Counted from the stretch's first letter, positions 26,671 through 43,262 are shown. The stretch: 64,000 bases of DNA from Patescibacteria group bacterium (GCA_023474215.1 JAMCYI010000001.1:2836-66835); one strand, 5' to 3'. Numbers and translations are program-made. The notes: a model not told the origin generated them from the sequence alone.

Positions 26671-26692
26671 CCGCCAATATGGCGGTTTTTTT
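26671..26692 (+). terminator. terminator ccgccaatatggcgg + TTTTTTT
   Basis: perfect hairpin + 7 T. Confidence 0.7.
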
Positions 26693-26723
26693 GTGTTGGG
26701 AGTGGTGGTATAATGGTACATAA

Positions 26724-26756
26724 GAGTGGTGAGAAGTGGATAAGTTTGTGGATAAC
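26724..26756 (+). promoter_or_regulatory. three GTGG(A) direct repeats at about 10-bp spacing upstream of mraZ; candidate MraZ operator, with TATAAT at 26709-26714
   Basis: gaGTGGtgag aaGTGGATAAg tttGTGGATAAc; resembles MraZ-box architecture. Confidence 0.55.
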
Positions 26757-26788: not shown

Positions 26789-27220
26789 ATGATACTGGGA
26801 GAATACAAACACAGCTTAGATATTAAAGGTCGGGTGGCGGTACCGGCCAAATTCAGGGAAAAAATAGAGGCCGGTGCCATTATTACGAGGGGCTTGGACA
26901 AATGCTTGTTCATGTTCGGCGCAAAAGAGTGGGAAACGCTCGTTCAAAAATTGATGTCGCTGCCATTGGCTCAATCGAACTCTCGAGCGTTCGTGCGTTT
27001 GATGCTCGCAGGAGCATCGGACGTCACGTTCGATAATCAGGGGAGAATCTTGATCCCCGAATATTTGCGGAAATATGCCGGACTCAAAAAACAAGTCGTC
27101 TTGACCGGCCTCTTTAACAGAATTGAAATTTGGGACTCGGCCGAATGGGACACTTACAAAACAAAGACCGAGTCATCTTCAGATGAAATAGCCGAGAAGC
27201 TCGGGGAACTGGGAATATAG
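26789..27220 (+). CDS. mraZ: transcriptional regulator MraZ
   Basis: MILGEYKHSLDIKGRVAVPAKFRE; two MraZ repeats. Confidence 0.9.
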   Translation: MILGEYKHSLDIKGRVAVPAKFREKIEAGAIITRGLDKCLFMFGAKEWETLVQKLMSLPLAQSNSRAFVRLMLAGASDVTFDNQGRILIPEYLRKYAGLKKQVVLTGLFNRIEIWDSAEWDTYKTKTESSSDEIAEKLGELGI

Positions 27221-27222
27221 CC

Positions 27223-28107
27223 ATGTCCCACGTTCCCGTTCTTTTAAACGAAGCAATAGAGATCTTGGACCCGCAGAAAGGGGAATTCTTCATCGACGGC
27301 ACGTTCGGAGAAGGAGGCCACGCAAAAGAAATCTTGGAACGGCTGACGCCCGGAGGAACACTCCTCGGCATCGATTGGGATCGGGAGATCTTGGAACGAA
27401 ATGCCGATTTGCCGAATCGATGGCCGGAGAATACGGTCATTTTGGAAAACGGAAATTATGCCGATATCCCGCGCATATTGAAAGACCACTATCTCGCGAA
27501 AGCCGACGGTATGATCGTCGATCTTGGATTCTCTTCCTGGCACATCGACGAATCGAAAAGAGGATTCAGCTTTGCGAAGGACGAACCGCTCGACATGCGG
27601 TATAACCCGGAAAGGAACGACCGAACTGCTTACGAAGTCGTGAATTCGCTCCCCGAAGGCGAACTTGCCGATGTGATCTACCGATACGGCGAGGAGCGGA
27701 ATTCTCGGAGGATCGCGAAGCGGATCGTCGAAGAGCGGCGGAAGAAAAAGATCCAGACGGCTCACGAGCTTTCCGAGATCGTGAATTCGGTATTCCGTTT
27801 CAAGGGCGGAAAACTGAGCCCTGCGACCAAAACCTTCCAAGCGATCAGGATCTACGTGAATGGGGAATTCGAGAATATCCGGGAACTCCTTGGATCGCTC
27901 CCGGAGATCCTGAAACCCGGAGGGCGGCTGGGAGTCATCACCTTCCATTCCTTGGAAGACAAACTGGTCAAAGATGCATTCAAACTGCTTCATCAAAAGG
28001 GACAAATAGATTTTTTAAACAAGAAAGTAATAAAACCGGGACGCGAAGAGATCATAAAAAATCCCAAAAGCCGTTCCGCAAAGCTCAGAGGAATAAAAAT
28101 AAAATAA
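27223..28107 (+). CDS. rsmH: 16S rRNA (cytosine1402-N4)-methyltransferase RsmH
   Basis: HVPVLLNEAIEIL...DGTFGEGGHA. Confidence 0.9.
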   Translation: MSHVPVLLNEAIEILDPQKGEFFIDGTFGEGGHAKEILERLTPGGTLLGIDWDREILERNADLPNRWPENTVILENGNYADIPRILKDHYLAKADGMIVDLGFSSWHIDESKRGFSFAKDEPLDMRYNPERNDRTAYEVVNSLPEGELADVIYRYGEERNSRRIAKRIVEERRKKKIQTAHELSEIVNSVFRFKGGKLSPATKTFQAIRIYVNGEFENIRELLGSLPEILKPGGRLGVITFHSLEDKLVKDAFKLLHQKGQIDFLNKKVIKPGREEIIKNPKSRSAKLRGIKIK

Positions 28108-28111
28108 AAAC

Positions 28112-28423
28112 ATGACCATCGTAAGACCTTCACTTTATACACAGAACGCACGCTTCATAATCTTCCTGCTTTCCTTTATACTGATTGCAGGTATCTCGTA
28201 CATCTTCATGTACAACGCGCTCGTGAATGCGCGCTACCAAGTATCGAACTTGAAAAGCCAAATAGCAGATGCGGCAAGCGCCCAAAACGAACTGAAGAGC
28301 CAGCTCTTCAATGTGACGGCACCGCAAAATCTTGATTCACTCGCGACGAAGTATAATCTTGTCCTGGATACCAAACCGCAATATCTTACCGAACACCCAT
28401 GGGTGTCAGATTCATCCTTCTAA
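28112..28423 (+). CDS. ftsL: FtsL-like cell division protein
   Basis: single TM + coiled coil; position between rsmH and ftsI. Confidence 0.5.
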   Translation: MTIVRPSLYTQNARFIIFLLSFILIAGISYIFMYNALVNARYQVSNLKSQIADAASAQNELKSQLFNVTAPQNLDSLATKYNLVLDTKPQYLTEHPWVSDSSF

Positions 28424-30024
28424 CAACACTTTTCGGATTGATTTTTGGACTTCTCGGGTTCAACTTATATAGGATTCAAATAGACAAAGGGGGGTACTAC
28501 TTGGATAAAGTCCAAGCAAGGACCGCGAATGCCGCTGAGCTGGAACTTTCGAGAGGGGAATTGTTTTTAACCGACCGTTATGGCAACGCCATACCGGTCG
28601 CCGTCGATAAGGATTACCCCATCATTTACGCAGTCCCGCAGCAAATCAAAAATCCGGAGCAAGAAGCCGCCGCTCTTGCGCCGGCTTTGAATATAAGCTC
28701 GACGACCCTCGCGTCGATGCTCGACAATCCCAAGAGCCTCTTCCGGGCTCTCACCGAAAAAGCGACCCAAGATCAAGTCAACGCGGTCGATGGCCTCAAC
28801 CTCGATGGCATTTATACCGACACGAAACAGTACCGCTACTATCCGTTCGACACGCTGGCTTCCAACGTCATCGGTTTCGTCGGCGTGAACGGCCAAAACC
28901 CGCAGCCGACCGGACTCTACGGCGCCGAAAAGGAGTTCAATAACACGCTTGCGGCGGGAGATGACGTCCATCTCACCATCGACCGCGTTCTCCAAGCGCA
29001 AGCCGAAGAACTCATTCAAAATTTGGTGGCTGCCCAAAGCGCCGAGAGCGGGTCGGTCATCATCGAAGATCCGACGACCGGCGCCATCCTCACGATGGTA
29101 TCATACCCGACCTTCAATCCGAACAGTTATGCCAGTTCGTCGATCGCCCTGTACGCGAACCAAAACGTGCAGGACAATTACGAGCCGGGTTCCGTCTTCA
29201 AGCCGATCACAATGTCGATCGGCATCGATAACGGCATTTTCACTCCGACCTCGACCTACGACGACAAAGGCGTCGTCGTTTTGAACGGGAGCGTCATCAG
29301 AAACTGGAATTTGAAAGCGTACGGTCCTCATACGACCATGACCAAGGTGATCGAAGAATCATTGAACACCGGGGCGGTTTGGGCGGAAGAACAGATCGGC
29401 AACAAACTTTTCTACGCCGGCGTCAAAAAATTCGGCTTCGGAGACCCAAGCGGCATCGACTTGCCGAACGAAGCTTCCGGCAGCCTTGCAAACCTCGAGA
29501 AGAGGGATGCCCGCGCCGTCGATTACGGCACGGCTGCCTTCGGACAAGGCATATCGGTAACGCCGGTTCAAATGATCAACGCCTTCTCGGTCATCGCAAA
29601 CGGAGGACTCTTGATGCGGCCGTACGTGAATGCAAGCGATGCCCCGGAAGTGATCCGCCGCGTCATAAGCAGCTCGACCGCAGAAAAAGTTCGGGGCATG
29701 ATGATCGACGCCGTGAACAAGGCGGGCGTTGCGACGATCTCGCAATTCACCGTCGCGGGAAAAACGGGGACTGCACAAATCCCGGATCTTCAAAGCGGCG
29801 GATATTATCCCAACCAATACATCCACACCTTCATCGGCATGGTTCCGGCAACCAAACCCCAGTACGTTATCTTGATCAAACTGGTCCGCCCGAAATCGGA
29901 ACTCGCTGCCGTTTCGGTCGTTCCGGCATTCAAGCAAATGGCGTCGTTTGTTTTAAATTATGAAAATGTCGCTCCCGACAACATCGGCAACAAACTCGAT
30001 TCCTATTTCTACGCCAACCCATGA
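28399..30024 (+). CDS. ftsI: penicillin-binding protein 2/3 (peptidoglycan D,D-transpeptidase FtsI)
   Basis: SxxK (GSVFKP), SxN (SLNTG), KTG (KTGTA) motifs. Confidence 0.9.
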   Translation: MGVRFILLTTLFGLIFGLLGFNLYRIQIDKGGYYLDKVQARTANAAELELSRGELFLTDRYGNAIPVAVDKDYPIIYAVPQQIKNPEQEAAALAPALNISSTTLASMLDNPKSLFRALTEKATQDQVNAVDGLNLDGIYTDTKQYRYYPFDTLASNVIGFVGVNGQNPQPTGLYGAEKEFNNTLAAGDDVHLTIDRVLQAQAEELIQNLVAAQSAESGSVIIEDPTTGAILTMVSYPTFNPNSYASSSIALYANQNVQDNYEPGSVFKPITMSIGIDNGIFTPTSTYDDKGVVVLNGSVIRNWNLKAYGPHTTMTKVIEESLNTGAVWAEEQIGNKLFYAGVKKFGFGDPSGIDLPNEASGSLANLEKRDARAVDYGTAAFGQGISVTPVQMINAFSVIANGGLLMRPYVNASDAPEVIRRVISSSTAEKVRGMMIDAVNKAGVATISQFTVAGKTGTAQIPDLQSGGYYPNQYIHTFIGMVPATKPQYVILIKLVRPKSELAAVSVVPAFKQMASFVLNYENVAPDNIGNKLDSYFYANP

Positions 30025-31328
30025 AACACACGACTCTCAAAATACTTTCGCTTTTCTTGAAATGGATAGCGCACGCGACCATCGCCAAATACCGACCGAG
30101 TATCGTCGGCGTGACGGGCAATGTCGGTAAAACATCAACGAAAACCGCCATTGCACGGGTTCTTGCGGCAGAACGACGGGTGAGAACGGCCTCGAAGAAT
30201 TTCAACAATGAACTGGGGTTGCCCGTAACCATCATCGGTGATTTTAAAGACACCGGCGGTACTTTTTTTTGGATCACCGTCATCGCGAAGGGGATGTGGC
30301 AATTGATAAGAAGGAATAACACGTACCCGGAAATGCTGGTCCTTGAATACGGCGTAGACCGGCCCGGGGACATGAACTATCTTCTTGCCATTGCGCGGCC
30401 CGACGTCGGCATCATTACGGCCATCGGCGAAACACCGGTCCATATCGAATTTTTCGATGGTCCGGAAGGGATCGCAAAAGAAAAATCGAAACTCATCGCG
30501 CAGTTGCCATCGACGGGATTTGCCATTTTGAACGTGGACGATAAACACGCGGAATTTTTCAAGGAACAAACAAGGGGGCATGTCATAACGTACGGCTTCG
30601 GGAACAACGCCGACGTCCGCATCACCGCGTTTGGAAACGCGATACGCGAAGACAATGAAAACGGCTTTGTTTCATTCAAACTGAATTACGGCGGGAGCAT
30701 GATCCCGGTCAAGATCGAAGGAGTTCTCGGGAAATCGACCGCTTATGCGGCGGCTGCGGCAGCCGCAACGGGCCTCATCTTCGGCATGAATCTCTTGAAG
30801 ATCGCGGAAGCGCTCGGCGGATTCAAGAACCCACCGGGCCGGGAAAACGTCATTCCGGGGATCAAAAATTCCATCGTGATCGACGATTCGTATAACGCTT
30901 CACCGAAGGCGACCGAAGAAGCGCTCGCGACCTTAAAGAGCATTGAAGCTAAACGGAAAGTCGCCGTTTTGGGAGATATGCTTGAACTCGGCCGTTACAC
31001 GATGGAGGCGCATCAAAAAATAGGCAGGCTTGCCGCAAAATCGGCTGATATCCTCGTGACAGTTGGAACAAGGGCGAAATTCACCGCGGAAGAAGCAATA
31101 AAAGCAGGCATGCCGAAACGAAACGTCATGGCATTCGAAAATTTGAACGATGCATCGCGGGAGCTCAAAAATCTCGTGCGGCACGGGGATGTCGTCCTTG
31201 TAAAAGGGTCGCAATCGGTCCGCATGGAAAAGATCACGAAAGACATCATGCGCGACCCCTTGGAAGCCGAGAAACTTCTCGTCCGCCAATCTTCGGTTTG
31301 GCTTGCCAAACCCGGGCTCTATGAATAA
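30021..31328 (+). CDS. murF: Mur ligase, UDP-MurNAc-tripeptide--D-Ala-D-Ala ligase (MurF-like)
   Basis: VGVTGNVGKTSTK P-loop; IDDSYNASP motif. Confidence 0.75.
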   Translation: MKHTTLKILSLFLKWIAHATIAKYRPSIVGVTGNVGKTSTKTAIARVLAAERRVRTASKNFNNELGLPVTIIGDFKDTGGTFFWITVIAKGMWQLIRRNNTYPEMLVLEYGVDRPGDMNYLLAIARPDVGIITAIGETPVHIEFFDGPEGIAKEKSKLIAQLPSTGFAILNVDDKHAEFFKEQTRGHVITYGFGNNADVRITAFGNAIREDNENGFVSFKLNYGGSMIPVKIEGVLGKSTAYAAAAAAATGLIFGMNLLKIAEALGGFKNPPGRENVIPGIKNSIVIDDSYNASPKATEEALATLKSIEAKRKVAVLGDMLELGRYTMEAHQKIGRLAAKSADILVTVGTRAKFTAEEAIKAGMPKRNVMAFENLNDASRELKNLVRHGDVVLVKGSQSVRMEKITKDIMRDPLEAEKLLVRQSSVWLAKPGLYE

Positions 31329-31340
31329 ACTAGGGGGTAA

Positions 31341-31415
31341 GGCCTCGTCGTCTAGCCTGGTCCAGGACACATGGTTCTCATCCATGTAACATGGGTTCGA
31401 ATCCCGTCGAGGCTA
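31341..31415 (+). tRNA. tRNA-Glu (anticodon CUC)
   Basis: close match to bacterial tRNA-Glu (TCGTCTAG...CAGGACAC); anticodon loop ttCTCat; T-loop ttcgaat. Confidence 0.8.
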
Positions 31416-31552
31416 CTAAATATTTGACATAATCTTTATATTATGTTAAAACAAACACGCTTCCAAGGCGGAAGAAGAGTGATCTTTGAAAGTTGAATAA
31501 AACCGGTCAAGCGATCACTACATTTAGTAACACAATAGAAAGGAGTTGGGTC

Positions 31553-31963
31553 ATGCCCACATGGTTTGATATCGTCAAAGCGGAAGTTGATTCCGTCGAT
31601 GAAAAAAATTTATTTGAACCACTAGCCGAGATAGAAGACGGCGACCACGAAATCGGCGAAGCTGATATGGACTTAAAAAGGCTGTACAGTCTTGCCATAA
31701 AATGGCAAAAATCTTCGATGGAGCTTATGGTTGCGGCGCAGTACGTCAACAATCGCGAAGACCAAGAATATAAGATCAAAAAAGCGAAGGAGCTTGGTCA
31801 AAAATCAAAACTTCTCGTGGAAATCTTTTGGACTTCCATAAAAGAGATGTACAATGTCTGGCACAAGCCTTCCATTGGCATCAGAAAAGGGTGGAAAATC
31901 GTCTGGAGCGAACCAGTAGAACCGCCCATCCCGGGGTTTCTCAAGGATCTTTTCGGTTTTTAG
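31553..31963 (+). CDS. hypothetical protein
   Basis: ORF; TTGACA-containing promoter at 31428. Confidence 0.4.
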   Translation: MPTWFDIVKAEVDSVDEKNLFEPLAEIEDGDHEIGEADMDLKRLYSLAIKWQKSSMELMVAAQYVNNREDQEYKIKKAKELGQKSKLLVEIFWTSIKEMYNVWHKPSIGIRKGWKIVWSEPVEPPIPGFLKDLFGF

Positions 31964-32036
31964 ATCACACTTCACCTCCGGCTACCGCGACAAAAGCCGT
32001 AAGAACAGTTTTTATCCCGGTAACCATGCAGGAAAA

Positions 32037-32062
32037 ACAAAAAGCCCAATATGTTTGGGCTT
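32037..32062 (+). terminator. terminator aagcccaa-tatg-tttgggctt + TTTATTTT
   Basis: hairpin + T-run. Confidence 0.65.
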
Positions 32063-32122
32063 TTTATTTTAGGCAATTGCTGCTCTTGGCGCGCAGGTGG
32101 TAAACCGCTAAAATAAGAAGGT

Positions 32123-32452
32123 ATGTTCAAGAAAAAGTCCATTCTTTTGCTCCTCGGAATGAGCGCTTTGTTCCTTCTGATAACGATCGGGCTCGTGATC
32201 CCCAAGATCGGGGGGCTCACGTACCCCTCCATCATCCACTTCGATAAATGGAACGGCGTGAATTTTCTGGGCGATCAAGCGGATTTTCTGGGAGTACTTT
32301 TTACCGGCATCGTTCTTGTCGCCTTGAACGTGCTTTTGAGCTCCCGGCTCTTCCATAAAGAACGGTTCGTGGCGTACCTGTTCCTCACCGCGAACGTCCT
32401 CATTTCGATACTTCTCTTGGTTTTTTCGGCAACCGTCGTAGGGAACAACTAA
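32123..32452 (+). CDS. membrane protein (3 TM)
   Basis: hydrophobic profile. Confidence 0.45.
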   Translation: MFKKKSILLLLGMSALFLLITIGLVIPKIGGLTYPSIIHFDKWNGVNFLGDQADFLGVLFTGIVLVALNVLLSSRLFHKERFVAYLFLTANVLISILLLVFSATVVGNN

Positions 32453-32453
32453 C

Positions 32454-33506
32454 ATGGTAACCATCCTCCTCATCATCCTCATCGTTCTTACCGTCGGCCT
32501 TTTGACGGCGACCATCCTTCTTGCACGCAAATTCGAGAAACCAAAAGAAAACGGAGAAGGCCTCACGTTCCTTCAAAATCAAATGAACGAGATCACGCGG
32601 ACGCTCGACTCGAAACTTACCGAATCGAACCGCGTTCTTCAAACCCAGTTCGGCGAAAGCGCAAAGATCATCCGCGACGTGACGGAACGCTTGACCAAGC
32701 TCGACGAAACGAACAAGCAGGTCGTGAATTTCGCCGACCAGCTCCAATCCCTGCAAGACATCCTGAAAAACCCGAAGCAGCGGGGAGTTCTCGGCGAATA
32801 CTATCTCGAAACGCTCCTCAAAAATGTCTTGCCGCCGGAAATCTATCAAATGCAGTACCCGTTCAAGAACGGCGAGATCGTGGACGCCGTCGTTTTCGTC
32901 GGCAAGAAACCCGACGAAAAGATCGTCCCGATCGACTCCAAATTTTCCCTCGAAAACTACAACCGGCTTACGGAAGCCAAGGACCCCGCCGAAAAAGAGC
33001 GGCTCGAAAAACTCTTCGTAAGCGACCTGAAGCAGCGGATCATCGAGACCTCGAAATATATCCGGCCGGAAGAAGGAACGACCGACTTTGCTTTCATGTT
33101 CATTCCCCACGAAGCCATTTACTACGATCTTTTGATCAACAAAGTAGGCGCCGTAACGGAAGATACGGAAAACTTGATCCAACGGGCGGCCGGTAAATAC
33201 AAGGTCGTCATCGTTTCGCCGACGTCATTTTTAGCATACCTCCAAACGGTCCTTCAAGGACTCCGCGCCATGAGGATCGAAGAATCGGCGAAGGAGATAC
33301 GAAAGCGAGTTGAAGAGCTGGGGAAGCATCTCGGAAACTATGAAACCTTCATGAAGAAACTGGGCAGCAACCTCGGCACAACGGTCAATATGTACAACAA
33401 TGCATACAAAGAGTTCGGAAAGATCGACAAGGACGTGCTCCGCATCACGGGCGAATCGATCAATGCGGAACCCGACCAATTAGAGCCTCCGGAAAACGGC
33501 GAATAA
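32454..33506 (+). CDS. rmuC: DNA recombination protein RmuC
   Basis: N-terminal TM + coiled coil, C-terminal DFAFMFIPHEAIYYDLL nuclease-like region typical of RmuC. Confidence 0.7.
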   Translation: MVTILLIILIVLTVGLLTATILLARKFEKPKENGEGLTFLQNQMNEITRTLDSKLTESNRVLQTQFGESAKIIRDVTERLTKLDETNKQVVNFADQLQSLQDILKNPKQRGVLGEYYLETLLKNVLPPEIYQMQYPFKNGEIVDAVVFVGKKPDEKIVPIDSKFSLENYNRLTEAKDPAEKERLEKLFVSDLKQRIIETSKYIRPEEGTTDFAFMFIPHEAIYYDLLINKVGAVTEDTENLIQRAAGKYKVVIVSPTSFLAYLQTVLQGLRAMRIEESAKEIRKRVEELGKHLGNYETFMKKLGSNLGTTVNMYNNAYKEFGKIDKDVLRITGESINAEPDQLEPPENGE

Positions 33507-33507
33507 G

Positions 33508-34149
33508 ATGGATCAAAAACTCCTCCTCGATCTCAAGTGGAAAAAACTGAGAAAACTCGCGAAATATTTCGCCTTCGTACCGTTTCTCGATTTCGTCGTG
33601 GTGACCGGATCGATGGCGGTGGGGAACGTGAAAGAAAATTCCGATTTCGATCTTCTGGTTTCGGTCAAAGAGGGGAGAATGTTTACTACGCGATACTGCA
33701 TCAATCTCATCTTTTCCCTCCTCGGAGAAAGGAGGCCGGACGATCTCGAGGAAACGAAGAGCGACAAGCTTTGCTTGAACCATTTCGTGACGGAAGCAAC
33801 GTGGAGCATAAAACCCATCAACGCATACAGCGCGGTCATTTACCAGAATTGGGTGCCGCTGTGGGGAGATGAGCAAAAAATAGAAAAGTTCCTGATCTTG
33901 AATTCCGGATACGATCCGAATGCAAAAACGCATTTGGAAGATCTGCGGTTCCGCAAAGGAAAGAAGAACGCCGTGGCACGGTCGCTTGAACGATCGCTCG
34001 GCGGTACGATCGGCGATCTCATCGAAAAAAATGTCGCGGGCGCCATCGCAAAGAGGAGGCTCTCCAAATATCTTGCAAGAAAAGAGGGGAGCGGGAGATT
34101 CATTTTAAACGAGCGGGAACTCGAGTTCCATTCAAACCCGAAAAAATAA
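33508..34149 (+). CDS. nucleotidyltransferase-domain protein
   Basis: TGSMAVGNVKENSDFDLLV (GS...DxD NTase motif). Confidence 0.55.
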   Translation: MDQKLLLDLKWKKLRKLAKYFAFVPFLDFVVVTGSMAVGNVKENSDFDLLVSVKEGRMFTTRYCINLIFSLLGERRPDDLEETKSDKLCLNHFVTEATWSIKPINAYSAVIYQNWVPLWGDEQKIEKFLILNSGYDPNAKTHLEDLRFRKGKKNAVARSLERSLGGTIGDLIEKNVAGAIAKRRLSKYLARKEGSGRFILNERELEFHSNPKK

Positions 34150-34153
34150 AACA

Positions 34154-34768
34154 ATGTTCGCACTCATATCGAATGTGGTCATCGAAACGATAAAATACCT
34201 CGGCTACCCGGGAATTTTCATCCTCATGACGCTCGAAAGCGTAAATATCCCCATCCCCTCGGAAGTCGTCATGCCGTTCTCGGGATTCCTCGCCCTTCAA
34301 GGGAATTTGGATTTTTGGCTTGTCGCGCTTATGGGTACGCTCGGAAATCTCGCCGGCTCTTTTTTGAATTATTTCCTCGCCGAGTGGATCCTCGGGATCA
34401 GGGAGAAATATAAGGTACTCCGCATCATCCTTTCGGAACGCCATCTCAAGAAGACCGACGAATGGTTCAAGAAATACGGATCGTACTCCATCTTCTTCGG
34501 GAGGGTTATTCCCGTGGTTCGAACGTTCATATCGCTGCCTGCCGGCATCGGAAAGATGAACATCGGAAAATTCACTTATCTGACCTTCTTCGGATCGTTC
34601 TTATGGGCGTGTTTTCTGACATACGTTGGATTCTTCCTCGGCAACAACTGGACCCTCATCCAGGATTACTTCAGGCAGATGGACTACATTATCCTCGCCG
34701 CCATCGCCGCCGCTTTGCTCTATTGGCTCCTCCGCCGCCGGAAGAGAAAGAAGGATTCCTTACATTAA
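34154..34768 (+). CDS. dedA: DedA-family membrane protein
   Basis: YPGIFILMTLESVNIPIPSEVVMPFSGFL. Confidence 0.75.
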   Translation: MFALISNVVIETIKYLGYPGIFILMTLESVNIPIPSEVVMPFSGFLALQGNLDFWLVALMGTLGNLAGSFLNYFLAEWILGIREKYKVLRIILSERHLKKTDEWFKKYGSYSIFFGRVIPVVRTFISLPAGIGKMNIGKFTYLTFFGSFLWACFLTYVGFFLGNNWTLIQDYFRQMDYIILAAIAAALLYWLLRRRKRKKDSLH

Positions 34769-34873
34769 TATGGGAGCGATGTCGCCTCCGAAGAAGCTTT
34801 TTCCTTGAGATATATAAATCCCGAGCGACGAGGAAGGAATGAACGAAATAGCGCCTGTATGAATCCCGAGTTG

Positions 34874-34905
34874 CCTCACTTTTTCACCATGGTGAAAAAG
34901 TGAGG
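34874..34905. repeat. 32-bp perfect palindrome cctcactttttcaccatggtgaaaaagtgagg
   Basis: self-reverse-complementary across CCATGG centre; no T-run on either side. Confidence 0.9.
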
Positions 34906-35007
34906 CATGAGGTTGAGTTCGATATTTCGTGGCTTAATTCCGACGAGGAGCGAGGAGGATTTATTCGAAAGGAAAACTTGCCGATGAGGAGACAACATCG
35001 CGACCCC

Positions 35008-35036
35008 TTGCATTTCAAGGAAAGATGTGCTATCAT
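35008..35036 (+). promoter_or_regulatory. sigma70-like promoter TTGCAT-17 bp-TATCAT upstream of secA leader
   Basis: near-consensus hexamers with 17-bp spacer. Confidence 0.55.
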
Positions 35037-35115
35037 ACTCGTGTGTGAGTGAAGCTTTCCTTGTCCTCAAGAGGCAACTCGCGAGGAAACCCAAGGAAAA
35101 ACCTTCAAAGTTCCG

Positions 35116-35143
35116 GAGTCCCGCAAGGGACTCTGGTTTTTTT
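35116..35143 (+). terminator. intrinsic terminator gagtccc-gcaa-gggactc + TGGTTTTTTT within secA leader
   Basis: GNRA-loop hairpin + 7 T. Confidence 0.7.
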
Positions 35144-35277
35144 ATGGAATACCCATTATTCTAAAAGGAGTGTCGGACCGCTCGTGCGGCTACGGTTGCG
35201 CACTCACACAACAATAAAAACTATTGGAGGTCACCACCGCAGCCGCACCAGCGGCCCGACTTATTTATCTTCATCCC

Positions 35278-37791
35278 ATGTCACTTTTAACCACGTTATT
35301 CAAAGACGGCAACCTCAAGCGATACGAACAAATCGTAAAAGAGATCAACTCTCTGGAATCCGAGATCCAGAAACTGACCTCTGAAAACATCAAAGGAGAG
35401 ATTGAAAAGCTCCGCGGGGAAGCAAAGAGCGGCAAAAGTCTCGATGAAATACTCCCGCGCTCTTTCGCCCTCACGCGAGAAGCGGCAAAACGCACCCTCC
35501 ACCAACGCCACTTCGACGTCCAGCTTATGGGCGGCATGGCGCTCCATGAAGGAAAGATCGCCGAAATGAGGACGGGAGAAGGAAAAACGCTCGCCGCGAC
35601 CCTTCCCACTGCGCTGAACGCACTGAAAGGTGACGGCGTTCACGTCATTACGGTCAACGACTATCTCGCAAAACGCGATGCTGTATGGATGGGACAAATT
35701 TACGACGCTTTGGGATTCAAAGTCGCGTGTATCGTCCACGACGCGGCGTACGCCTATGATCCATCGTTCGTCGGAGAAGAAAAATCCGACGAAGAACGTG
35801 ATGTGATTGGCGGGTTCAGGGTCGTCGAAAAATTTTTGCGCCCGATCTCGCGGAAAGAAGCATATGCAGCGGACATCGTCTACGGTACGAACCATGAATT
35901 CGGCTTCGACTATCTCCGCGACAATCTTTCCCTCCGTCTGGGGGAAAAAGTCCAGCGGGGCTTCCCGTACGTCATTATCGACGAGATCGACAGCATCTTG
36001 ATCGACGAGGCTCGGACACCGCTCATCATTGCCGGCCCCGATCAAGAATCGAGCGAATACTACAAGGTATTCGCCCGCATCGTCGGAAATTTGAACCAAG
36101 AAGAGGATTATGCGGTCGACGAAAAACTGAAGACCGTTTCCATCACCGAAGCCGGTATTGAGAAAGTTGAAAAGCTTTCCAACGTTCAAAATATCTACGC
36201 TCCGGAAAACCTCCGGCTCGTCCATTTCCTTCAAGAAAGCTTGAAGGCAAAAGCCCTCTTCAAACGCGACAAGGATTACATCGTGAAAAACGGCGAGGTC
36301 ATCATCGTCGACGAATTCACCGGCCGGATGCTTTTGGGGCGCAGATATTCCGGCGGGCTCCACCAAGCCATCGAGGCGAAGGAAGGGGTAAATGTCCGGC
36401 AAGAAGACCGAACATACGCTCAGATCACCATTCAAAATTATTTCCGCCTGTACACCAAGATCAGCGGCATGACGGGTACCGCACAAACTTCGGCTGAGGA
36501 GTTCCATAAGGTATACAAACTCGATGTCGTCACGATCCCGACGAACCGACCCATGATCCGAAGGGATTCTCCGGACGCCATCTATAAAACCAAAAAAGCA
36601 AAATACGAAGCGGCAGTCAAAGCCATCAAAGAAGAACGGGAAAAGGGGAGACCGATCCTCGTCGGCACGACTTCCATTGAGAACAACGAGATCATTTCCT
36701 CATACCTTTCGCGGGCAGGCATCCCCCACGAGGTCTTGAACGCGAAAAACCACGAGCGCGAAGGCGAGATCATCGCCCAAGCGGGGCGGTCCGGAACCGT
36801 TACGGTCGCGACCAATATGGCCGGACGCGGCGTCGACATCATCCTCGGCGGCAATCCGCCGGACGAAAAAGAAGCTGAAAAGATCAAAACGGCGGGCGGC
36901 CTTCTCGTCATCGGCACGGAACGGCATGAAGCGAGGCGGGTGGACAATCAGCTCCGCGGCCGCGCCGGTCGGCAGGGAGATCCCGGCTCGACGCAGTTTT
37001 TCCTTTCCCTCGAGGACGATCTCATGCGCATCTTCGGCGGCGATCGGATCAAGCGTCTCATGGAGACCTTGAACTATCCCGAAGACATGCCCATTCAATC
37101 GAAAACCGTCGTGAAGGCAATCAACCAAGCCCAAGTCAAAGTCGAAGGGGCGAACTTCGACATCCGAAAGCACCTCCTTGATTTTGACGATGTTTTGAAC
37201 AAACAGCGGAGTGCCGTCTACGGGAAAAGGGTGAAGATCCTCGAAGCCGGCGACAAAAACGAGATCATGCCGGTCGTGAAGGAAATGGTGGAACATTTCA
37301 CGGCAAATGCCGTGCAATCGCTCAAGGCTCAAATTGACCAGAAGCCGGAAGAGCGCGAGCAAATCGAAAAGCAAATCGAAGACCTCGAATCGAAGCCCGC
37401 AACGATACCGGATGCCGTCGATCAAATGAAATCGACCGTCATAGCCCAACAGATCGTAAGGATCATGGATACGCTCTGGGTAGACCACCTGGAACAACTC
37501 GACAGTCTCAGGGAATCGGTGAATATCAGAGCATATGGCCAGCACGATCCGCTGGTCGAATACCGCCGCGAAGCACATATTCTCTACCAACAGCTCATGG
37601 CCGCCGTGGAATCCCTTGTTACGAGCGTCATCTTCCAGATCCTCGCGATGGATTTCACAAAGACCGCGACGACGACCGCTCCGGTAAAACGGGAAACGCC
37701 CCCGCCGGAGTATAAAAACATCGGCAGGAACGACCCTTGCTGGTGTGGCAGCGGCCTGAAGTACAAAAAGTGCCATGGCAAAAACGCCTAA
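35278..37791 (+). CDS. secA: preprotein translocase ATPase SecA
   Basis: DEAD-like motifs, C-terminal CWCGSGLKYKKCHG zinc finger. Confidence 0.95.
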   Translation: MSLLTTLFKDGNLKRYEQIVKEINSLESEIQKLTSENIKGEIEKLRGEAKSGKSLDEILPRSFALTREAAKRTLHQRHFDVQLMGGMALHEGKIAEMRTGEGKTLAATLPTALNALKGDGVHVITVNDYLAKRDAVWMGQIYDALGFKVACIVHDAAYAYDPSFVGEEKSDEERDVIGGFRVVEKFLRPISRKEAYAADIVYGTNHEFGFDYLRDNLSLRLGEKVQRGFPYVIIDEIDSILIDEARTPLIIAGPDQESSEYYKVFARIVGNLNQEEDYAVDEKLKTVSITEAGIEKVEKLSNVQNIYAPENLRLVHFLQESLKAKALFKRDKDYIVKNGEVIIVDEFTGRMLLGRRYSGGLHQAIEAKEGVNVRQEDRTYAQITIQNYFRLYTKISGMTGTAQTSAEEFHKVYKLDVVTIPTNRPMIRRDSPDAIYKTKKAKYEAAVKAIKEEREKGRPILVGTTSIENNEIISSYLSRAGIPHEVLNAKNHEREGEIIAQAGRSGTVTVATNMAGRGVDIILGGNPPDEKEAEKIKTAGGLLVIGTERHEARRVDNQLRGRAGRQGDPGSTQFFLSLEDDLMRIFGGDRIKRLMETLNYPEDMPIQSKTVVKAINQAQVKVEGANFDIRKHLLDFDDVLNKQRSAVYGKRVKILEAGDKNEIMPVVKEMVEHFTANAVQSLKAQIDQKPEEREQIEKQIEDLESKPATIPDAVDQMKSTVIAQQIVRIMDTLWVDHLEQLDSLRESVNIRAYGQHDPLVEYRREAHILYQQLMAAVESLVTSVIFQILAMDFTKTATTTAPVKRETPPPEYKNIGRNDPCWCGSGLKYKKCHGKNA

Positions 37792-38617
37792 AAAGGAATA
37801 TTGCTATTTGAACGGAAAAATAATTCCCGTCAATGACGCAAAAATTCCGGTGATCGACATCGGCGTGCTCCGCGGCTATGGGATCTTCGATTCCGTTGCC
37901 GGCATCGATGACCGGATCGTTTTCTTCGACGAACACTACAAACGCTTCGAAACGTCCGCGAAGATCATGCGGCTCAAGATCCCCCTGAAGAAAGGGGAGA
38001 TAAAAAAGATCATAGAGGGCCTTTTGAAAAGGAACGGCTACCGCCTTTCAAAAATACGCCTTGTCCTCACGGGGGGAAAGACAATCGGCAGCCTGGACTT
38101 CGATCGACGTTCGGAAAATTTCTTCATCTTGGCAGAAAAAACGGAATTGCCCCCGAAGGATAGTTATACGAGGGGCGTAAAGCTCATCACCGCGGAATAC
38201 GAGCGCGAAATACCGAGAGCGAAGAGCAACGACTACGTAGCCGCGGTCTATCTCCAGCCGTCCCAGAAAAAAGCCGGAGCAACGGAGATCCTTTACACCT
38301 TCCGGGGAAATGTTCTTGAAGCTACGACATCCAATTTTTTCATCATAAAAGGCAACAAGCTCATAACGGCAAAGGACGGGATTTTATTCGGCATAACGCG
38401 GGACAAGGTCATCGGCCTTGCAAAAAGATCCATGGATGTTGAGGAACGCATCGTGAAAACAAGCGAATTCAAGGCGGCCGACGAAGCATTCATCACAAGC
38501 ACCTACAAAAAAGTGATGCCGGTCGTAAAAATAGACAATTTGATCATAGGCAACGGGAAAGTCGGCCCCAAAACAAGACTGCTCATGCAGAGATACAATG
38601 AGCTCGAACAAAAGTAA
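37775..38617 (+). CDS. class IV (branched-chain/D-amino acid) aminotransferase
   Basis: fold-type IV PLP enzyme N-terminal pattern YLNGKIIPVNDAKIPVIDIGVLRGYGIFD. Confidence 0.7.
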   Translation: MAKTPKKEYCYLNGKIIPVNDAKIPVIDIGVLRGYGIFDSVAGIDDRIVFFDEHYKRFETSAKIMRLKIPLKKGEIKKIIEGLLKRNGYRLSKIRLVLTGGKTIGSLDFDRRSENFFILAEKTELPPKDSYTRGVKLITAEYEREIPRAKSNDYVAAVYLQPSQKKAGATEILYTFRGNVLEATTSNFFIIKGNKLITAKDGILFGITRDKVIGLAKRSMDVEERIVKTSEFKAADEAFITSTYKKVMPVVKIDNLIIGNGKVGPKTRLLMQRYNELEQK

Positions 38618-39089
38618 GAAACTACTTACCTTGTGCCTCATCTACGAACATCCGAGGATACTCTTCGGCATGAAAAAGCGGGGATTCGGCGCGGGAAGAT
38701 GGAATGGCTTCGGCGGAAAACTGAACGAGGGCGAAACCGTGGAAAAGGGGGCAAAACGCGAACTCCAGGAAGAAGCTGGCGTCACGGCAACCGAAATGGA
38801 AAAACGGGGTATTTTAGAATTCGAGTTCCAAACGAACGGGGATATCTTCGAGGTGCATGTTTTTCGCGTGAAAAGCTTTACCGGAACGCCGACGGAAAGC
38901 GAAGAGATGAAACCGCAATGGTTCGATGTCGCCGACATCCCCTACGATGCGATGTGGCCGGACGACAGATTCTGGCTCCCGCTTTTTTTGAAGGACAAGA
39001 AGTTCAAAGGAAAATTCCTCTTCGGGGAAAACGATGCGATCGTGGAGCACGAACTCTCGGAAATTGAAAATCTCGAGGAAGGCGCCTAG
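38598..39089 (+). CDS. Nudix hydrolase (MutT-like)
   Basis: Nudix box GGKLNEGETVEKGAKRELQEEAGV. Confidence 0.8.
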   Translation: MSSNKSKKLLTLCLIYEHPRILFGMKKRGFGAGRWNGFGGKLNEGETVEKGAKRELQEEAGVTATEMEKRGILEFEFQTNGDIFEVHVFRVKSFTGTPTESEEMKPQWFDVADIPYDAMWPDDRFWLPLFLKDKKFKGKFLFGENDAIVEHELSEIENLEEGA

Positions 39090-39100
39090 AATGAAAAGTC

Positions 39101-39679
39101 ATGGAAGAAAAAGAAGTAAAATTCCTCAACGTTAACAAGGAGGAATTGGAGAACAAAATAGCGGGTCTGGGCGCTACGAAAGAAGGGGATTATTTTTACA
39201 AACGGGAAGTGTTCGATTATCCCGATTTTCGTTTGGACAAGAATGGCGCATGGCTCCGCTTGAGGGACGAGGGTAATCGGATAACGCTCTCGTATAAGCA
39301 GCGGCTCGGGATCAAATCGGAGGACGGAAGCATTTCCGATGAAAGCATGAAAGAAGTGGAGATCGTCGTGAACGACTTCGAAAAGACCGCCGTGCTCCTC
39401 AAGGAACTCGGCTTCATCGAAAAACACTATGCCGAAAACAAGCGAACCCGCTGGATAAAGGATGGCGTCGAATTCGATATCGATACGTGGCCGGCGCTCG
39501 AGCCGTACCTTGAAATAGAATCATCGACCTGGGAAAAGGTTGACGAGGCGATCGCCTGGCTTGGATTGGACCCGAAAGACAAAAAGATATTTTCCACCAA
39601 TCAGATCTATAAAATGAAAGGCATGGATATCATCGATTACATTCGCCTGACATTCGACGGGCTCGTGAAAAGGAAATGA
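39101..39679 (+). CDS. CYTH-domain protein (CyaB/thiamine triphosphatase-like)
   Basis: N-terminal EKEVKFL (ExExK) signature. Confidence 0.6.
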   Translation: MEEKEVKFLNVNKEELENKIAGLGATKEGDYFYKREVFDYPDFRLDKNGAWLRLRDEGNRITLSYKQRLGIKSEDGSISDESMKEVEIVVNDFEKTAVLLKELGFIEKHYAENKRTRWIKDGVEFDIDTWPALEPYLEIESSTWEKVDEAIAWLGLDPKDKKIFSTNQIYKMKGMDIIDYIRLTFDGLVKRK

Positions 39680-39912
39680 TGAGCGAGGAAGCGAAAAATC
39701 TGAAGCTGGGCGTCTACGAACATTTCAAGCCGGAACACCATCGCTACCGCGTTCTTGGCGTCGCTCGGCACAGCGAGACGTTGGAAGAAATGGTCGTCTA
39801 CCAAGCCCTCTACGGCGAAGGGGATATCTGGGTCCGCCCCTTGAACATGTTCCTTGGAGAAGCGGAGGTCGACGGCAAAAAAGTTCCCCGCTTCACGTAC
39901 ATCAGCGAATGA
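39676..39912 (+). CDS. DUF1653-like small protein
   Basis: GVYEHFKPEHHRYRVLGV...VVYQALYG pattern. Confidence 0.45.
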   Translation: MMSEEAKNLKLGVYEHFKPEHHRYRVLGVARHSETLEEMVVYQALYGEGDIWVRPLNMFLGEAEVDGKKVPRFTYISE

Positions 39913-40879
39913 AATGAAAAGGGCGCTCATCATAACAGGTGCCGCTATTCTCGTTTTGGGAGCGGCGTGTTATTTTCTCTTCGGTGCGCCGGGGGGAGCT
40001 CCGACGCCCGAACGCTTTATCGTATCCCTCGGCGAAACTCGCGCACAGGCGATACAAAATTTGGCGGATCAAGGATTTATTCGAAGCGGCTTCGGTTTTT
40101 CGATCGCCTCTACCCTCGAAGGGAACCAAGCCATCATCCCCGGCGGATACAAAATCAACGGGAGCATGAACGTTTTTCAGGTGGTTTCGGCCTTAAACCG
40201 ACCACCCTATATGAAATGGGTCGTGGTGCCGGAAGGATTGCGAAAAGAAGAAACAGCGAACCTTCTTCAAAAAGACCTTGGATGGACCGATGCGACGAAG
40301 AACCAATTCTTGAACGCCTATCAGACCCTCGGAGGCAACGATTACAAAGAAGGCGTCTATTTCCCGGACACGTATCTTTTACCCGTCGACGAAACGGGCA
40401 CCCAGATAGCCCAGAGATTCATAACGCAATTCAACGAGAGCTTTGCTCCGTATGCCAAGGAAGCTACGGCTCAAAACATCAAATGGACGACCGCTCTCAA
40501 AATCGCTTCGATCATCCAACGGGAAGCCGCTGGCACAAGCGACATGGCGCTCATTTCCGGGATCATTTGGAACCGACTCCTGAAGAATATGCCTCTCGAC
40601 ATCGATGCGACCATTCAATACGCCCGGGGCGACACGGGCAATGGTTTCTGGGCACCGCTTGCGGTAGCCGACCTGAAAATCGACTCACTATACAACACTT
40701 ACCTCCACAAGGGTTTGCCGCCGACGCCGATATCGAATCCGGGCCTCGCAGCGATCGACGCCGCCTTGAACCCGCAAACGACGACCTGCCTCTACTATAT
40801 CCATGATGCAAATCATATCATCCACTGCGCGGATACATATGCCGAGCAAGAATTAAATGTAAAGAAATATCTCCAATGA
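39912..40879 (+). CDS. mltG: endolytic murein transglycosylase MltG (YceG-like)
   Basis: N-terminal TM; GLPPTPISNPG motif. Confidence 0.8.
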
Positions 40880-41643
40880 AAAATACACTGACGCCATCAA
40901 AAAACGCAGAACGAATGGCAATTCAGTATCTTCAACACGAATTCAGGAAAATCTTGAACGGCATTCGGGACCCGAAGACTTGGAGATTAATAGACAGAGA
41001 AATCGCCAATTTCCCCAAAACACAGGGTGGGGCATCATTCTGGAATCTCGTTGCGGCTATATCGGAAGATTGGAAACTGAAATCGGTCTTCCGAATATTG
41101 TCGGACACGCGGGTCACTTGGACACTGCAAGAAATTTCCCTGAAGAGAATTGTCCTCACCGGGATGTCGCCGGAAATCGACCGCTACACAATAGCGCGAT
41201 GCGACGGGAGTCCGAAGCAGTTTCTTAAACTGTGGGAAGGTAATCGGAAAGCGCGGAGCGACATATTGAAAACAGGATTCTCAAAACACGGGGAGCGAGA
41301 TTACTATCCCATCTTCCTTTGGGAGGGACCGGATGGCCTCCACGTTTTTGATGGCATGCGGAGGATGCTCCTTGCGATCATCAATCGCAAAAAGACGATC
41401 AGGGCATGGGTCGGGAAACCTTCGAGGAAGAAGGGAGGACCACTCATTGCAAACGGTTTTGCTTATGCTCTGTCAGCGGTTTACCGGCATGCCGGCAAGA
41501 GAAATAATGCCCTTGATAATGCCATCATCGAAATCGTAAAAACGATAAAAAGAGATTATCGGAACGGCAAAGAGGTGACAGAAAAAAGAATCGCTGGCTG
41601 GTCGCGCGATGAAAAGATAAAAAAGATATTCGGTCAAAAATGA
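40876..41643 (+). CDS. hypothetical protein (255 aa)
   Basis: ORF, 4-bp overlap with mltG. Confidence 0.45.
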   Translation: MKNTLTPSKNAERMAIQYLQHEFRKILNGIRDPKTWRLIDREIANFPKTQGGASFWNLVAAISEDWKLKSVFRILSDTRVTWTLQEISLKRIVLTGMSPEIDRYTIARCDGSPKQFLKLWEGNRKARSDILKTGFSKHGERDYYPIFLWEGPDGLHVFDGMRRMLLAIINRKKTIRAWVGKPSRKKGGPLIANGFAYALSAVYRHAGKRNNALDNAIIEIVKTIKRDYRNGKEVTEKRIAGWSRDEKIKKIFGQK

Positions 41644-41764
41644 AAAATCGTGCTAAAATAGGCGGAAGGCCGGGCAATCCGGCATACCGAACGCCCGCAC
41701 GGTTGCGGGCAAATGTAAAGTTCAAAATACAAAAGTCAAAACTGAAATTAAAAACTAAAAAACA

Positions 41765-42439
41765 ATGAATGGAAAGTTATACGTCGTGGGAACACCCATC
41801 GGCAATCTGAAAGACATCACGGAAAGGGCAAAGGAGACGCTCACAAGCGTCGATTTGGTACTTGCGGAAGACACGCGGGTCACATCAAAACTCCTAAACC
41901 ATCTCGGCATTAAGAAGCCGATGTGGCGGTACGATGAATACGCAAAAAGCGATCTCTATGAACGGATCCTCGAGTTCCTCGGCGCAGGAAAGGAAATCGC
42001 GCTCGTAACGGACGCAGGAACGCCCTTGATTGCCGACCCCGGATCGAAACTCATTGCCTTCATACGAGAAAGGACGCCCGAAGTGAAGATCGTCCCGATC
42101 CCGGGACCATCGGCCATCGTAACCGCGCTTTCCGCGTCCGGCATGAACGCCGACCGATTCACATTCGCCGGATACCCGCCGCATAAGAAGGGGAGGCAAA
42201 CATTTTTCAAAACCTTGAAACAGATCGAAATGCGACCGGTCGTCATATATGAATCGCCGCACCGGCTTCAAAAAACGTTCAACGACATGGAAAAGATCTG
42301 CGGCATTGAACATCCGATAACCGTGGCAAAAGAATTGACGAAAATACACGAAGAGATTTGGAAGGGGACGCTCGAAGAAGCAAAAAGACATTTTCAAAAA
42401 GAAAAGGGGAAAGGTGAATTCGTCATCATCATACCGTAA
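41765..42439 (+). CDS. rsmI: 16S rRNA 2'-O-methyltransferase RsmI
   Basis: KLYVVGTPIGNLKDITERA...LAEDTR. Confidence 0.85.
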   Translation: MNGKLYVVGTPIGNLKDITERAKETLTSVDLVLAEDTRVTSKLLNHLGIKKPMWRYDEYAKSDLYERILEFLGAGKEIALVTDAGTPLIADPGSKLIAFIRERTPEVKIVPIPGPSAIVTALSASGMNADRFTFAGYPPHKKGRQTFFKTLKQIEMRPVVIYESPHRLQKTFNDMEKICGIEHPITVAKELTKIHEEIWKGTLEEAKRHFQKEKGKGEFVIIIP

Positions 42440-43038
42440 TGGCTTACCGGGGGAAAAGAATTTTAGATCTCGTGATCGCACTGCCGGCTTCACTTTTTAC
42501 CGTGTTCCTCACGCCTTTCGTGGGGCTTGCCGTGGCCCTCGAAGACGGCTTTCCGATATTCGTACGTCTTGAACGGATAAGCGACGGTAAAGTGATCCGC
42601 GTGTGGAAATTCCGTTCAATGATAAAGGGAGCACAAACGATGAAAAAAGAACTGGGGAGCTTGAACGAGCGGAAAGACGGCCCGCTTTTCAAGATCAAAA
42701 ACGATCCGCGCCTCACGAAGACCGGCAAGATACTCCGCAAATTCAGACTGGACGAGTTCCCGCAAGCATGGAATATCCTTTCGGGCGATATCTCTCTCGT
42801 CGGCCCGCGGCCGCACGAGCCCGGGGAAATCGGCCAATATCCTCCGGAATTCAAACGCCTGTCGCTCGCACAATCAGGCCTCACCGGCCTTTCTCAAGTT
42901 TCAGGCGCTTCAAAACTGCCGTTCAAAGAAGAAGTGGCGCTCGATGTTTACTACGTCGACCACGAATCATTCCTCATGGACATGAAGATCCTTTGGAAGA
43001 CCATCGCCATTTTTTTCTCCGACCCGACCGGAGTGTGA
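42439..43038 (+). CDS. bacterial sugar transferase (undecaprenyl-phosphate hexose-1-phosphate transferase, PglC/WbaP C-domain type)
   Basis: KFRSM, DGPLFK...DPR, DEFPQ...SLVGPRP motifs. Confidence 0.85.
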   Translation: MAYRGKRILDLVIALPASLFTVFLTPFVGLAVALEDGFPIFVRLERISDGKVIRVWKFRSMIKGAQTMKKELGSLNERKDGPLFKIKNDPRLTKTGKILRKFRLDEFPQAWNILSGDISLVGPRPHEPGEIGQYPPEFKRLSLAQSGLTGLSQVSGASKLPFKEEVALDVYYVDHESFLMDMKILWKTIAIFFSDPTGV

Positions 43039-43042
43039 GCGA

Positions 43043-43180
43043 GTGAGGGTATTTCTCTTCAAAACACGCTATCAAATTCCCCAGCGTGGAATTTGCGCTC
43101 GCTCTCGGCCTCGCTCTGCCCTTCGGGCAACCATGCCCGCGAGGCCTCCGAGACGGTTTCGAAAGAGAAATATCCTCACC
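43043..43180. repeat. palindrome-flanked element family A (TIR GTGAGGGTATTTCTCTT / AAGAGAAATATCCTCAC), 5 nt after stop
   Basis: 16/17 TIR; internal aaacacgct...cgctcgctctcgg...gagacggttt shared with 49488..49629. Confidence 0.6.
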
Positions 43181-43262
43181 CTTTGGTAAAGTTTTTATAT
43201 TCAAAAGAGGCACAGCTAAAAAGAATGGAAAATCATATAAAACCAGGGTAGAATGAGACCTA

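Follow-up and report, generated by a model that had tools for sequence, protein, structure and literature searches.

Two conserved RNA elements upstream of secA in Patescibacteria: a probable trans-acting RNA pair

The window, the whole stretch of 64,000 nucleotides that was analyzed, was assigned by its SecA to the Patescibacteria (Paceibacteria/Jorgensenbacteria-like), with the best GTDB representatives being 70% and 66% identical. The gene secA, encoding 837 amino acids (35278..37791, + strand), was delimited on the NCBI MAG contig DAIBZB010000001.1, which carries an identical SecA, by means of the gene calls made there and the Pfam SecA domains. Its ATG occupies positions 35278–35280, correcting an earlier placement, and the AUG has no Shine-Dalgarno sequence. 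The gene upstream, a member of the DedA/VTT family, has its stop at 34768, and no gene was called within the 509-nt spacer separating it from secA. This spacer contains two conserved RNA elements, a predicted small RNA (RNA-1) and a long hairpin (RNA-2) that ends 17 nt before the secA AUG. An in-frame TTG within the loop of RNA-2 (35224–35277 in the window, 2501–2600 in the related locus L206) lets ORF finders and gene callers lengthen the N terminus of SecA; the ORF in the window was listed with 855 residues, and P0003 was called with 878. Such extended N termini are an annotation artefact due to the RNA element.

RNA-1 (35043..35143, + strand, ~100 nt) is a predicted trans-acting sRNA, delimited by its fold and its homologues, with the start placed 7 nt past the −10 box and the 3′ end in the U tract. 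Its promoter, P1, consists of the −35 hexamer TTGCAT (35008..35013, + strand) and, after a 17-nt spacer, the extended −10 element TGcTATCAT (35028..35036, + strand), in which TG occupies 35028–29 and TATCAT 35031–35036. These are the boxes named in a preliminary description of the sequence, although the term near-consensus used there was an overstatement, since they match the consensus at only 8 of 12 positions (3/6 + 5/6) and were not called by a consensus promoter scanner, the −35 box matching at just 3/6. P1 was retained despite the scanner because it is conserved: in an alignment of 11 homologous promoters, TTG of the −35 hexamer is nearly invariant, and T1, A2, and T6 of the −10 hexamer are invariant.

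The predicted transcript begins with the 5′-terminal seed (U)GUGUGAGUG (35042..35051, + strand), which is followed by hairpin A (35056..35099, + strand), found in both the MFE fold and the RNAalifold prediction, with the lower stem UUUCCUUG...CAAGGAAA; RNAalifold applied to 12 homologues yielded 15 pairs in this hairpin, 8 of them with compensatory changes. The linker ACCUUCAAAGUU (35101..35112, + strand), a second putative pairing site, leads to the intrinsic terminator (35113..35143, + strand), identified by a terminator scan and comprising a 10-bp stem at 35113–35136 (7 GC pairs), a GCAA loop, and a U7 tract encoded by T7 at 35137–35143. No other terminator between 33.5 and 36.5 kb scored as high. 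The short promoter-to-terminator unit described previously was thus borne out, with a predicted transcript of 95–101 nt from ~35043. All 11 aligned RNA-1 homologues retain TTG of the −35 box, T/A/T of the −10 box, the ..UGAGUG seed a few bases past the latter, the hairpin base UUCCUUG/CAAGGAA, the C-rich linker, and the tetraloop terminator with a U run; a tetraloop-capped GC stem with a U run is found in every RNA-1 homologue. As judged from sequence, the conserved sigma-70-type promoter and the strong intrinsic terminator identify RNA-1 as an independent transcription unit.

A second conserved structured element, with a long hairpin-like fold, is located between the dedA/VTT stop and P1 (34783–35005, + strand). 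RNAalifold gave −52 kcal/mol for its + strand and −42.5 for the − strand. It includes a perfect 18+18 palindrome at 34872–34907, which covaries in L205 and is deleted in L206, and L207 lacks the entire middle of the element. Two of its segments are complementary to hairpin A of RNA-1 (34793–34807 with 35092–35106, 14/15; 34864–34877 with 35071–35084, 13/14), and the element may have arisen as an inverted, partial copy of RNA-1 or may serve as a sponge against it.

RNA-2 (35172..35260, + strand) is a long imperfect hairpin of ~90 nt, defined by its fold, a covariance model, and covariation, and forms here the 5′ leader of secA. It is built of a main stem of ~24 bp that includes A–C and C–C mismatches, an internal loop, and a 33-nt apical region with an A-rich terminal loop closed by the 5-bp helix GC(A)CUC/GAGGU. 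Structure prediction, proposed earlier as a check of the locus, indicated stable folds for both elements, with −44.2 kcal/mol (z = −5.5 versus shuffles) for 35041–35143 and −50.3 kcal/mol (z = −5.3 versus shuffles) for 35144–35300. The window hairpin scores 83.3 bits (E = 3e-19) against the covariance model R1. Among 25 homologues, compensatory changes are present in all 19 of the 19 main-stem pairs, with 91.8% of cells paired compared to 68.5% in shuffles, and the covariation score reaches 0.68, where shuffles give 0.23 and slid controls no more than 0.22. The G-U pairs and the scores of the minus-strand model, about 45–60 bits lower, place RNA-2 on the + strand.

Two sites in the apical region of RNA-2 are predicted to bind RNA-1. 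Loop site 1, GCACUCACACAAC (35200..35212, + strand), the sole full match to the seed in the 64-kb window, would bind the RNA-1 seed, and its part 35200–35205 doubles as the strand of the apical helix that pairs with 35227–35231. Loop site 2, AACUAUUGGAGGU (35219..35231, + strand), which holds UGGAGGU, called invariant, would bind the linker. A triple constraint accounts better than an upstream ORF or a Shine-Dalgarno sequence for the near-invariance of the apical GCACUCA and UGGAG, since each would have to pair with the other inside RNA-2 and with RNA-1. RNA-2 may also be transcribed from a promoter of its own, as a TANNNT hexamer, often TATAAT, TACAAT, or TATTAT, is positioned 9–20 nt 5′ of the hairpin in 17 of 21 loci; in the window the candidate P2 −10 box, TATTCT (35157..35162, + strand), is weak, has a poor −35, and is proposed from this recurrence in other loci. 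A separate terminator is located downstream of RNA-2 in L043, L033, and L025. Since a U run follows the hairpin in only ~8 of 14 loci, a terminator role of RNA-2 is not general. In a Nomurabacteria-like subfamily, the loop closes on itself to yield a nearly continuous hairpin of ~40 bp, for which a −10 box of its own and a separate terminator are present, with no RNA-1 nearby.

With the spacer as a query, nhmmer recovered the unit extending from promoter to hairpin in L002, L017, L001, L052, and L008. An exact-pattern scan of metagenome contigs (GCACT-N12-26-TGGAGGTCACC) returned 120 stretches, mostly chance matches in GC-rich coding DNA, with seven true homologues when the flanking stem was required; the invariance of TGGAGGTCACC in these seven is due to ascertainment, real variation being visible in the covariance-model and SecA-anchored hits. 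The model R1 led to a more divergent RNA-2 subfamily in seven further SecA loci. By nhmmer and covariance-model searches, RNA-2 was found in 29 Patescibacteria loci, with RNA-1 beside it in 22 and not found near it in 7; the RNA-1 homologues were located by nhmmer (11 + 8 loci) and by eye (L019, L022, and L132). Conservation upstream of secA, which had been suggested as a check, is evident in the closer relatives (SecA identity of 70–86%, the only basis on which they were picked), all eight of which hold RNA-1 and RNA-2 between the upstream gene and secA.

Partial or nested duplications of RNA-2 were observed in L001 (775–960), L205 (2310–2490), L209 (2150–2300), and L122 (2400–2470). In the nested form, outer arms homologous to those in the window, with a degenerate GCGCACU.. 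site, enclose a complete inner hairpin, and a conserved UUGUCCCGCAACUGUCC lies 3′ of the duplicated or nested RNA-2; L122 has three GAGCACU..UUCA sites. RNA-2 is often found among other RNA genes, with a tRNA directly upstream in L032 (2310–2380), L028 (1926–1996), and L025 (1773–1843) or directly downstream in L125 (2360–2430), and with RNase P RNA nearby in L022 (1828–2158).

The preliminary description had pointed to complementarity between the 5′ end of the transcript and a segment just before secA. The 11-mers quoted there match at 10 of 11 positions, and the segments 35042–35051 (TGTGTGAGTG) and 35201–35210 (CACTCACACA) are complementary at all ten; a perfect 10-mer inverted repeat within 270 nt would be expected by chance an estimated ~0.03 times. 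Decisive support for the predicted complementarity is provided by its conservation, with compensatory changes, in relatives. The seed/loop classes include GAAUGAGUG/CACUCAUUC, AGUGAGUG/CACUCACU, UGUGUGAGUG/CACUCACACA, UUGGUGAuGUG/CACUCACCAA, UAUAUGAGUG/CACUCAUAUA, and GUUGAGUGAGUG/CACUCGCUCAAC, and the best pairing of each seed is with its own loop or loop class. The seed duplex of the window (−17.0 kcal/mol) is likewise best with its own loop. In A4, a register-fixed alignment of 20 seed/loop pairs, nine contiguous positions are almost always paired, there are 21 doubly changed cells, whereas shuffles give 9.7 ± 2.1 (0/500), and a covariation score of 0.212 stands against 0.114 ± 0.015 in the shuffled sets (reached by 0/500); these counts, as well as the permutation counts given below, are not true probabilities, the sequences being phylogenetically related. 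The slid controls of A4 collapse. Columns 5–13 are paired and columns 1–4 are unpaired, and the pairing thus begins exactly at the predicted start of the transcript, 35043.

The linker follows the same pattern. Its duplex with the loop in the window (35101–35112 with 35219–35231) amounts to −12.0 kcal/mol, and compensatory changes convert UUGG/CCAA, found in most loci, to AUGG/CCAU in L132, CAAUGG/CUAUUG in L125, and CUGG/CCAG in L136. Own partners give a mean of −16.1 versus −13.2 kcal/mol for non-own ones in seed/loop duplexes, and of −11.3 versus −8.7 kcal/mol in linker/loop duplexes, values reached in each case by 0/20000 permutations, whereas the cross controls (seed with the 3′ half of the loop, linker with the 5′ half) are weak. 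The covariation of both predicted intermolecular helices, the presence and conservation of both elements, and the hairpin itself are established at the level of sequence. Since the genes for RNA-1 (+ strand, promoter 938–966) and RNA-2 (− strand, 755–847) are divergent in L132, the pairing there must occur in trans; the pair of L022 lies in inverted orientation with respect to secA. We consider it very likely that RNA-1 and RNA-2 pair, and the two predicted transcripts would be expected to do so in vivo. No further RNA-1 targets above chance were found in the 64-kb window, and the seed pairs with the secA start region over merely 5–6 nt, which is explained by the conserved Met-Ser-Leu codons.

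These observations bear directly on one of the readings offered when the locus was first presented, in which an attenuator or riboswitch acts in cis on transcription and the 5′ segment, by pairing with the downstream one, forms an antiterminator alternative to the terminator at 35113–35143. It is true that promoter, terminator, and complementary segments share a strand in the window, as they do in most relatives, but neither arm of the sole conserved alternative pairing (35042–35051 with 35201–35210) shares a nucleotide with the terminator stem (35113–35136), and the downstream partner, in the loop of an independently conserved hairpin, is made 58 nt past the U tract, when termination can no longer be influenced. 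The opposite strands of RNA-1 and RNA-2 in L132 and the separate −10 boxes 5′ of RNA-2 also speak against it, as does the lack of an aptamer-like conserved core and of any match to an Rfam riboswitch or leader family; we regard such a switch as exceedingly improbable. A translational reading would take the loop sequence UUGGAGGU as a Shine-Dalgarno sequence, as the NUG start codon of a short ORF upstream of secA (MEVT...), or as both; translation of this ORF, which RNA-1 would block, would open the hairpin and be coupled to secA, in an arrangement resembling secM or a type I toxin-antitoxin system. The base preceding UGGAGG is indeed U, A, or C, creating UUG, AUG, or CUG, the frame enters the downstream gene in the window and in L090, and the mini-ORF of L002 stops 4 nt before the secA start. 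However, no start codon is present in L207 (UAAGGAGG) or L209 (UUAGGAGG), where UUG is replaced by AAG and UAG, and changes at the variable base go together with changes in the RNA-1 linker. The third positions of GAG GUC ACC are invariant in one subfamily, the other changes codons non-synonymously (GGUUAGCC versus GUUUCGCC), and the peptides that would result show neither conservation nor hydrophobicity. A GGAG/GAGG/AGGA core at −20 to −5 occurs at none of 15 gene starts (window 26789–43263), and the 16S 3′ tails GGAAUAAUUCAAUUU of two related lineages (L032, 900–961; L028, 680–735) are devoid of CCUCC; this reading is therefore very improbable as well. The long inverted repeats, the partly duplicated or nested hairpin in L001, L122, L205, and L209, and a further palindromic element just upstream might instead indicate a DNA-level element, such as a REP/MITE-like palindrome or a recombination site, or simply terminators of the neighboring genes, in neither case with an RNA-RNA function. 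Such an origin is hardly credible in view of the strand-specific signal, with its G-U pairs and minus-strand covariance-model scores lower by about 45–60 bits, the occurrence of the element once per locus at a syntenic position (one copy in 64 kb), and the covariation of the loop with a separate promoter-plus-terminator unit.

The alternative that deserves most attention concerns not the pairing but its purpose, and it depends on how RNA-2 is related to secA. In eight of the nine genomes of the window's clade, RNA-2 ends 10–50 nt before the secA start (17 nt in the window; also L002, L132, L205, L206, L207, L208, and L211), the exception being L209, with about 230 nt. A distance of 10–50 nt leaves no space for a separate secA promoter, and RNA-2 is therefore part of the secA leader in those genomes. 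Elsewhere, RNA-2 precedes murB (L008, L017, and L090), hpf (L016 and L052, followed by secA), a tRNA (L125), or the rplC operon (L136 and L165); the different downstream genes, together with the −10 boxes and terminators of its own, suggest that the RNA module is older and broader than a secA leader. The designation secA leader given previously thus applies to the window but not to the element at large. RNA-1 and RNA-2 might accordingly constitute a stand-alone RNA-RNA module in which the complex itself does the work, whether as an sRNA and the sponge or decoy that binds it or as a two-piece RNP, with secA merely read through and not a regulated target. Consistent with this are the −10 box of RNA-2, its downstream terminator in L043, L033, and L025, the tRNA that comes next in L125, the variation of downstream genes among genomes, the inverted pair in L022, and the self-closed ~40-bp Nomurabacteria-like hairpin with no RNA-1 nearby, as well as the hpf/secA neighborhood shared by raiA-motif RNAs in Bacillota and Actinomycetota (PMC10861870), of which such a module could be a functional analogue. 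On the other hand, a hairpin 10–50 nt from the start codon in 8/9 clade genomes is unavoidably a leader, neither a protein partner nor a second target came to light, and only one target-like site is present in the 64-kb window, so that we consider a stand-alone module unlikely, though by no means negligible. Its boldest form, in which RNA-1 and RNA-2 would be halves of a class-wide Patescibacteria RNA machine that forms a four-way junction by strand exchange, as a counterpart of the raiA motif with a role in translation/hibernation or envelope/secretion homeostasis and not in the control of one gene, appears improbable. A conserved secA promoter within the hairpin loop or tail, or a leaderless secA, was looked for by eye and found unconvincing.

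The reading that we favor, and regard as probable, is that the two conserved elements upstream of secA form a trans-acting RNA pair, rather than a terminator/antiterminator switch, and that RNA-1 tunes the leader. The 5′ end of RNA-1 would dock where the RNA-2 loop is single-stranded, with the seed engaging the 5′ half of the loop (GCACUCACACA), and would invade the apical helix, which docking must open because each half of the loop is one strand of that helix. The linker, single-stranded between hairpin A and the terminator, would then capture the 3′ half (AACUAUUGGAGGU). In the resulting toehold/strand-exchange geometry, essentially the whole loop would be coated, and the A-rich open loop would be converted into a multi-helix, four-way-junction-like complex. 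On the secA leader, this would most likely change how often transcription reads through the hairpin and the U-rich tail behind it, how the leader is processed or how stable it is, or how readily ribosomes gain access. From the location of the hairpin within the leader, we infer that RNA-1 tunes the fate of the leader and thereby of secA. The earlier proposal of an sRNA controlling secA is supported, through covariation, as regards a trans-acting base-pairing sRNA; the effect on secA follows from position, and control of secA by RNA-1 is a tentative proposal, somewhat short of an even chance.

In its overall layout, RNA-1 resembles RybB and OmrA/B, trans-encoded base-pairing sRNAs with 5′-terminal seeds and Rho-independent terminators, as it likewise has its own promoter, a 5′-terminal seed, an internal hairpin, an intrinsic terminator, and conserved short imperfect complementarity. 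Unlike those sRNAs, RNA-1 would be directed at the apical loop of a long hairpin and not at a ribosome-binding site, the body of RNA-1 contains a second pairing site, the gene usually adjoins its target, and the host is a Patescibacterium; we know of no chaperone for the RNA-1/RNA-2 system. OxyS-fhlA and CopA-CopT, loop-directed antisense complexes with two sites or a four-way junction, share with the RNA-1/RNA-2 pair the recognition of a hairpin loop, two intermolecular helices, and an expected multi-helix junction without a full duplex. CopA, however, is fully complementary and cis-encoded, whereas RNA-1 and RNA-2 are trans-encoded with 10–13 bp plus 8–13 bp, and OxyS uses two loops of its own, whereas the 5′ end and linker of RNA-1 would invade a single loop. 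In IstR-1/tisB, where a standby site is blocked, and in DsrA/RprA-rpoS, where a leader hairpin is opened, an sRNA likewise acts on leader structure at some distance from the start codon, and IstR-1, as RNA-1, is encoded beside its target; by comparison, RNA-2 has no toxin ORF, Shine-Dalgarno sequence, or evidence for a standby function, and its main stem would not be invaded. The attenuators of pT181 and pIP501 also combine a small RNA that acts on a leader loop with a terminator-like hairpin directly 5′ of the start codon, but their countertranscripts are cis-antisense and operate a preemptor/terminator switch, whereas RNA-1/RNA-2 has no evident alternative fold and its U tract is not universal.

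Two further systems are related by their location. In E. coli, secM is the translation-arrest leader of secA, and the locus described here similarly places a putative regulatory element directly upstream of secA; it lacks, however, a conserved upstream ORF, an arrest peptide, and a Shine-Dalgarno sequence to unmask, and the distinction from secM drawn in the preliminary description is supported. The raiA motif (ModT, RF03072) is an abundant-type, stand-alone noncoding RNA gene upstream of raiA/hpf that is associated with secA in Bacillota and Actinomycetota (PMC10861870), and it consists of a single RNA of ~200 nt with a P1 closing stem, a four-way junction, and two pseudoknots, PK1 and PK2 (PMC12968392). 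Several genomes of the candidate phyla radiation carry the pair before (murB-)hpf-secA as well, and its position relative to raiA/hpf and secA is of this kind in L008, L016, L017, and L052, but hpf is not adjacent in the window. RNA-1 and RNA-2, in contrast, are two separate RNAs that share no detectable sequence or structure with the motif, the covariance model of which matched neither the window region (E ≤ 10) nor five related loci (E ≤ 1). Homology to the raiA motif was rejected on these grounds, and synteny alone does not equal homology.

Searches for known families with Rfam 15, at gathering and permissive E-values, gave only spurious miRNA-precursor matches to the hairpin in the window and 25 loci, and ARAGORN found no tmRNA or tRNA in the region. 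In a test for a type I toxin-antitoxin arrangement, no small hydrophobic toxin ORF was found in the RNA-2 target. Literature searches returned no description of an RNA-1/RNA-2 pair and no sRNA regulators for bacteria of the candidate phyla radiation. The pair is a new sRNA/partner family, with no match in Rfam 15, of a mechanistic kind that is already known.

The bacteria of the candidate phyla radiation have tiny genomes and are not growable alone. In this setting, a covariation-supported sRNA/partner pair is conserved across many Paceibacteria-type genomes, beside the essential genes secA, murB, hpf, and the rplC operon, and the sequences suffice for two covariance models with which to annotate MAGs. 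Mutations in the seed or loop, with compensatory rescue, are a prediction open to testing in vitro or with a heterologous reporter, so that the organism need not be cultivated. If the pair controls secA or murB, it would represent RNA-based control of secretion and envelope synthesis unlike that by secM; if it is autonomous, it would be a new conserved RNA-RNA complex.

Several minor observations concern DnaA boxes and other RNAs. A perfect DnaA box, AAGTTATCCACAG, is found within very AT-rich DNA beside RNA-2 or RNA-1 in L016 (~2330–2350), L125 (~2005), and, downstream of RNA-2, L022, L028, and L033; in these relatives it could mark a nearby oriC or a DnaA-regulated promoter. A link to the origin of replication was rejected for the window, which has neither a DnaA box nor a skew change near 35 kb. 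Three DnaA-box-like 9-mers (TTATCAACA, TTATCCACT, and TTATCCACA) lie within 130 nt at 26627–26755 (− strand), just upstream of mraZ (26789), a clustering that stands out even though such boxes are no more frequent window-wide than expected by chance. Two known RNAs were found in the window with scores above the Rfam gathering score, a LOOT RNA (RF03000) at 5002–5121 (− strand, 88.6 bits) and a ribosomal protein L10 leader at 24118–24246 (+ strand, 66 bits).
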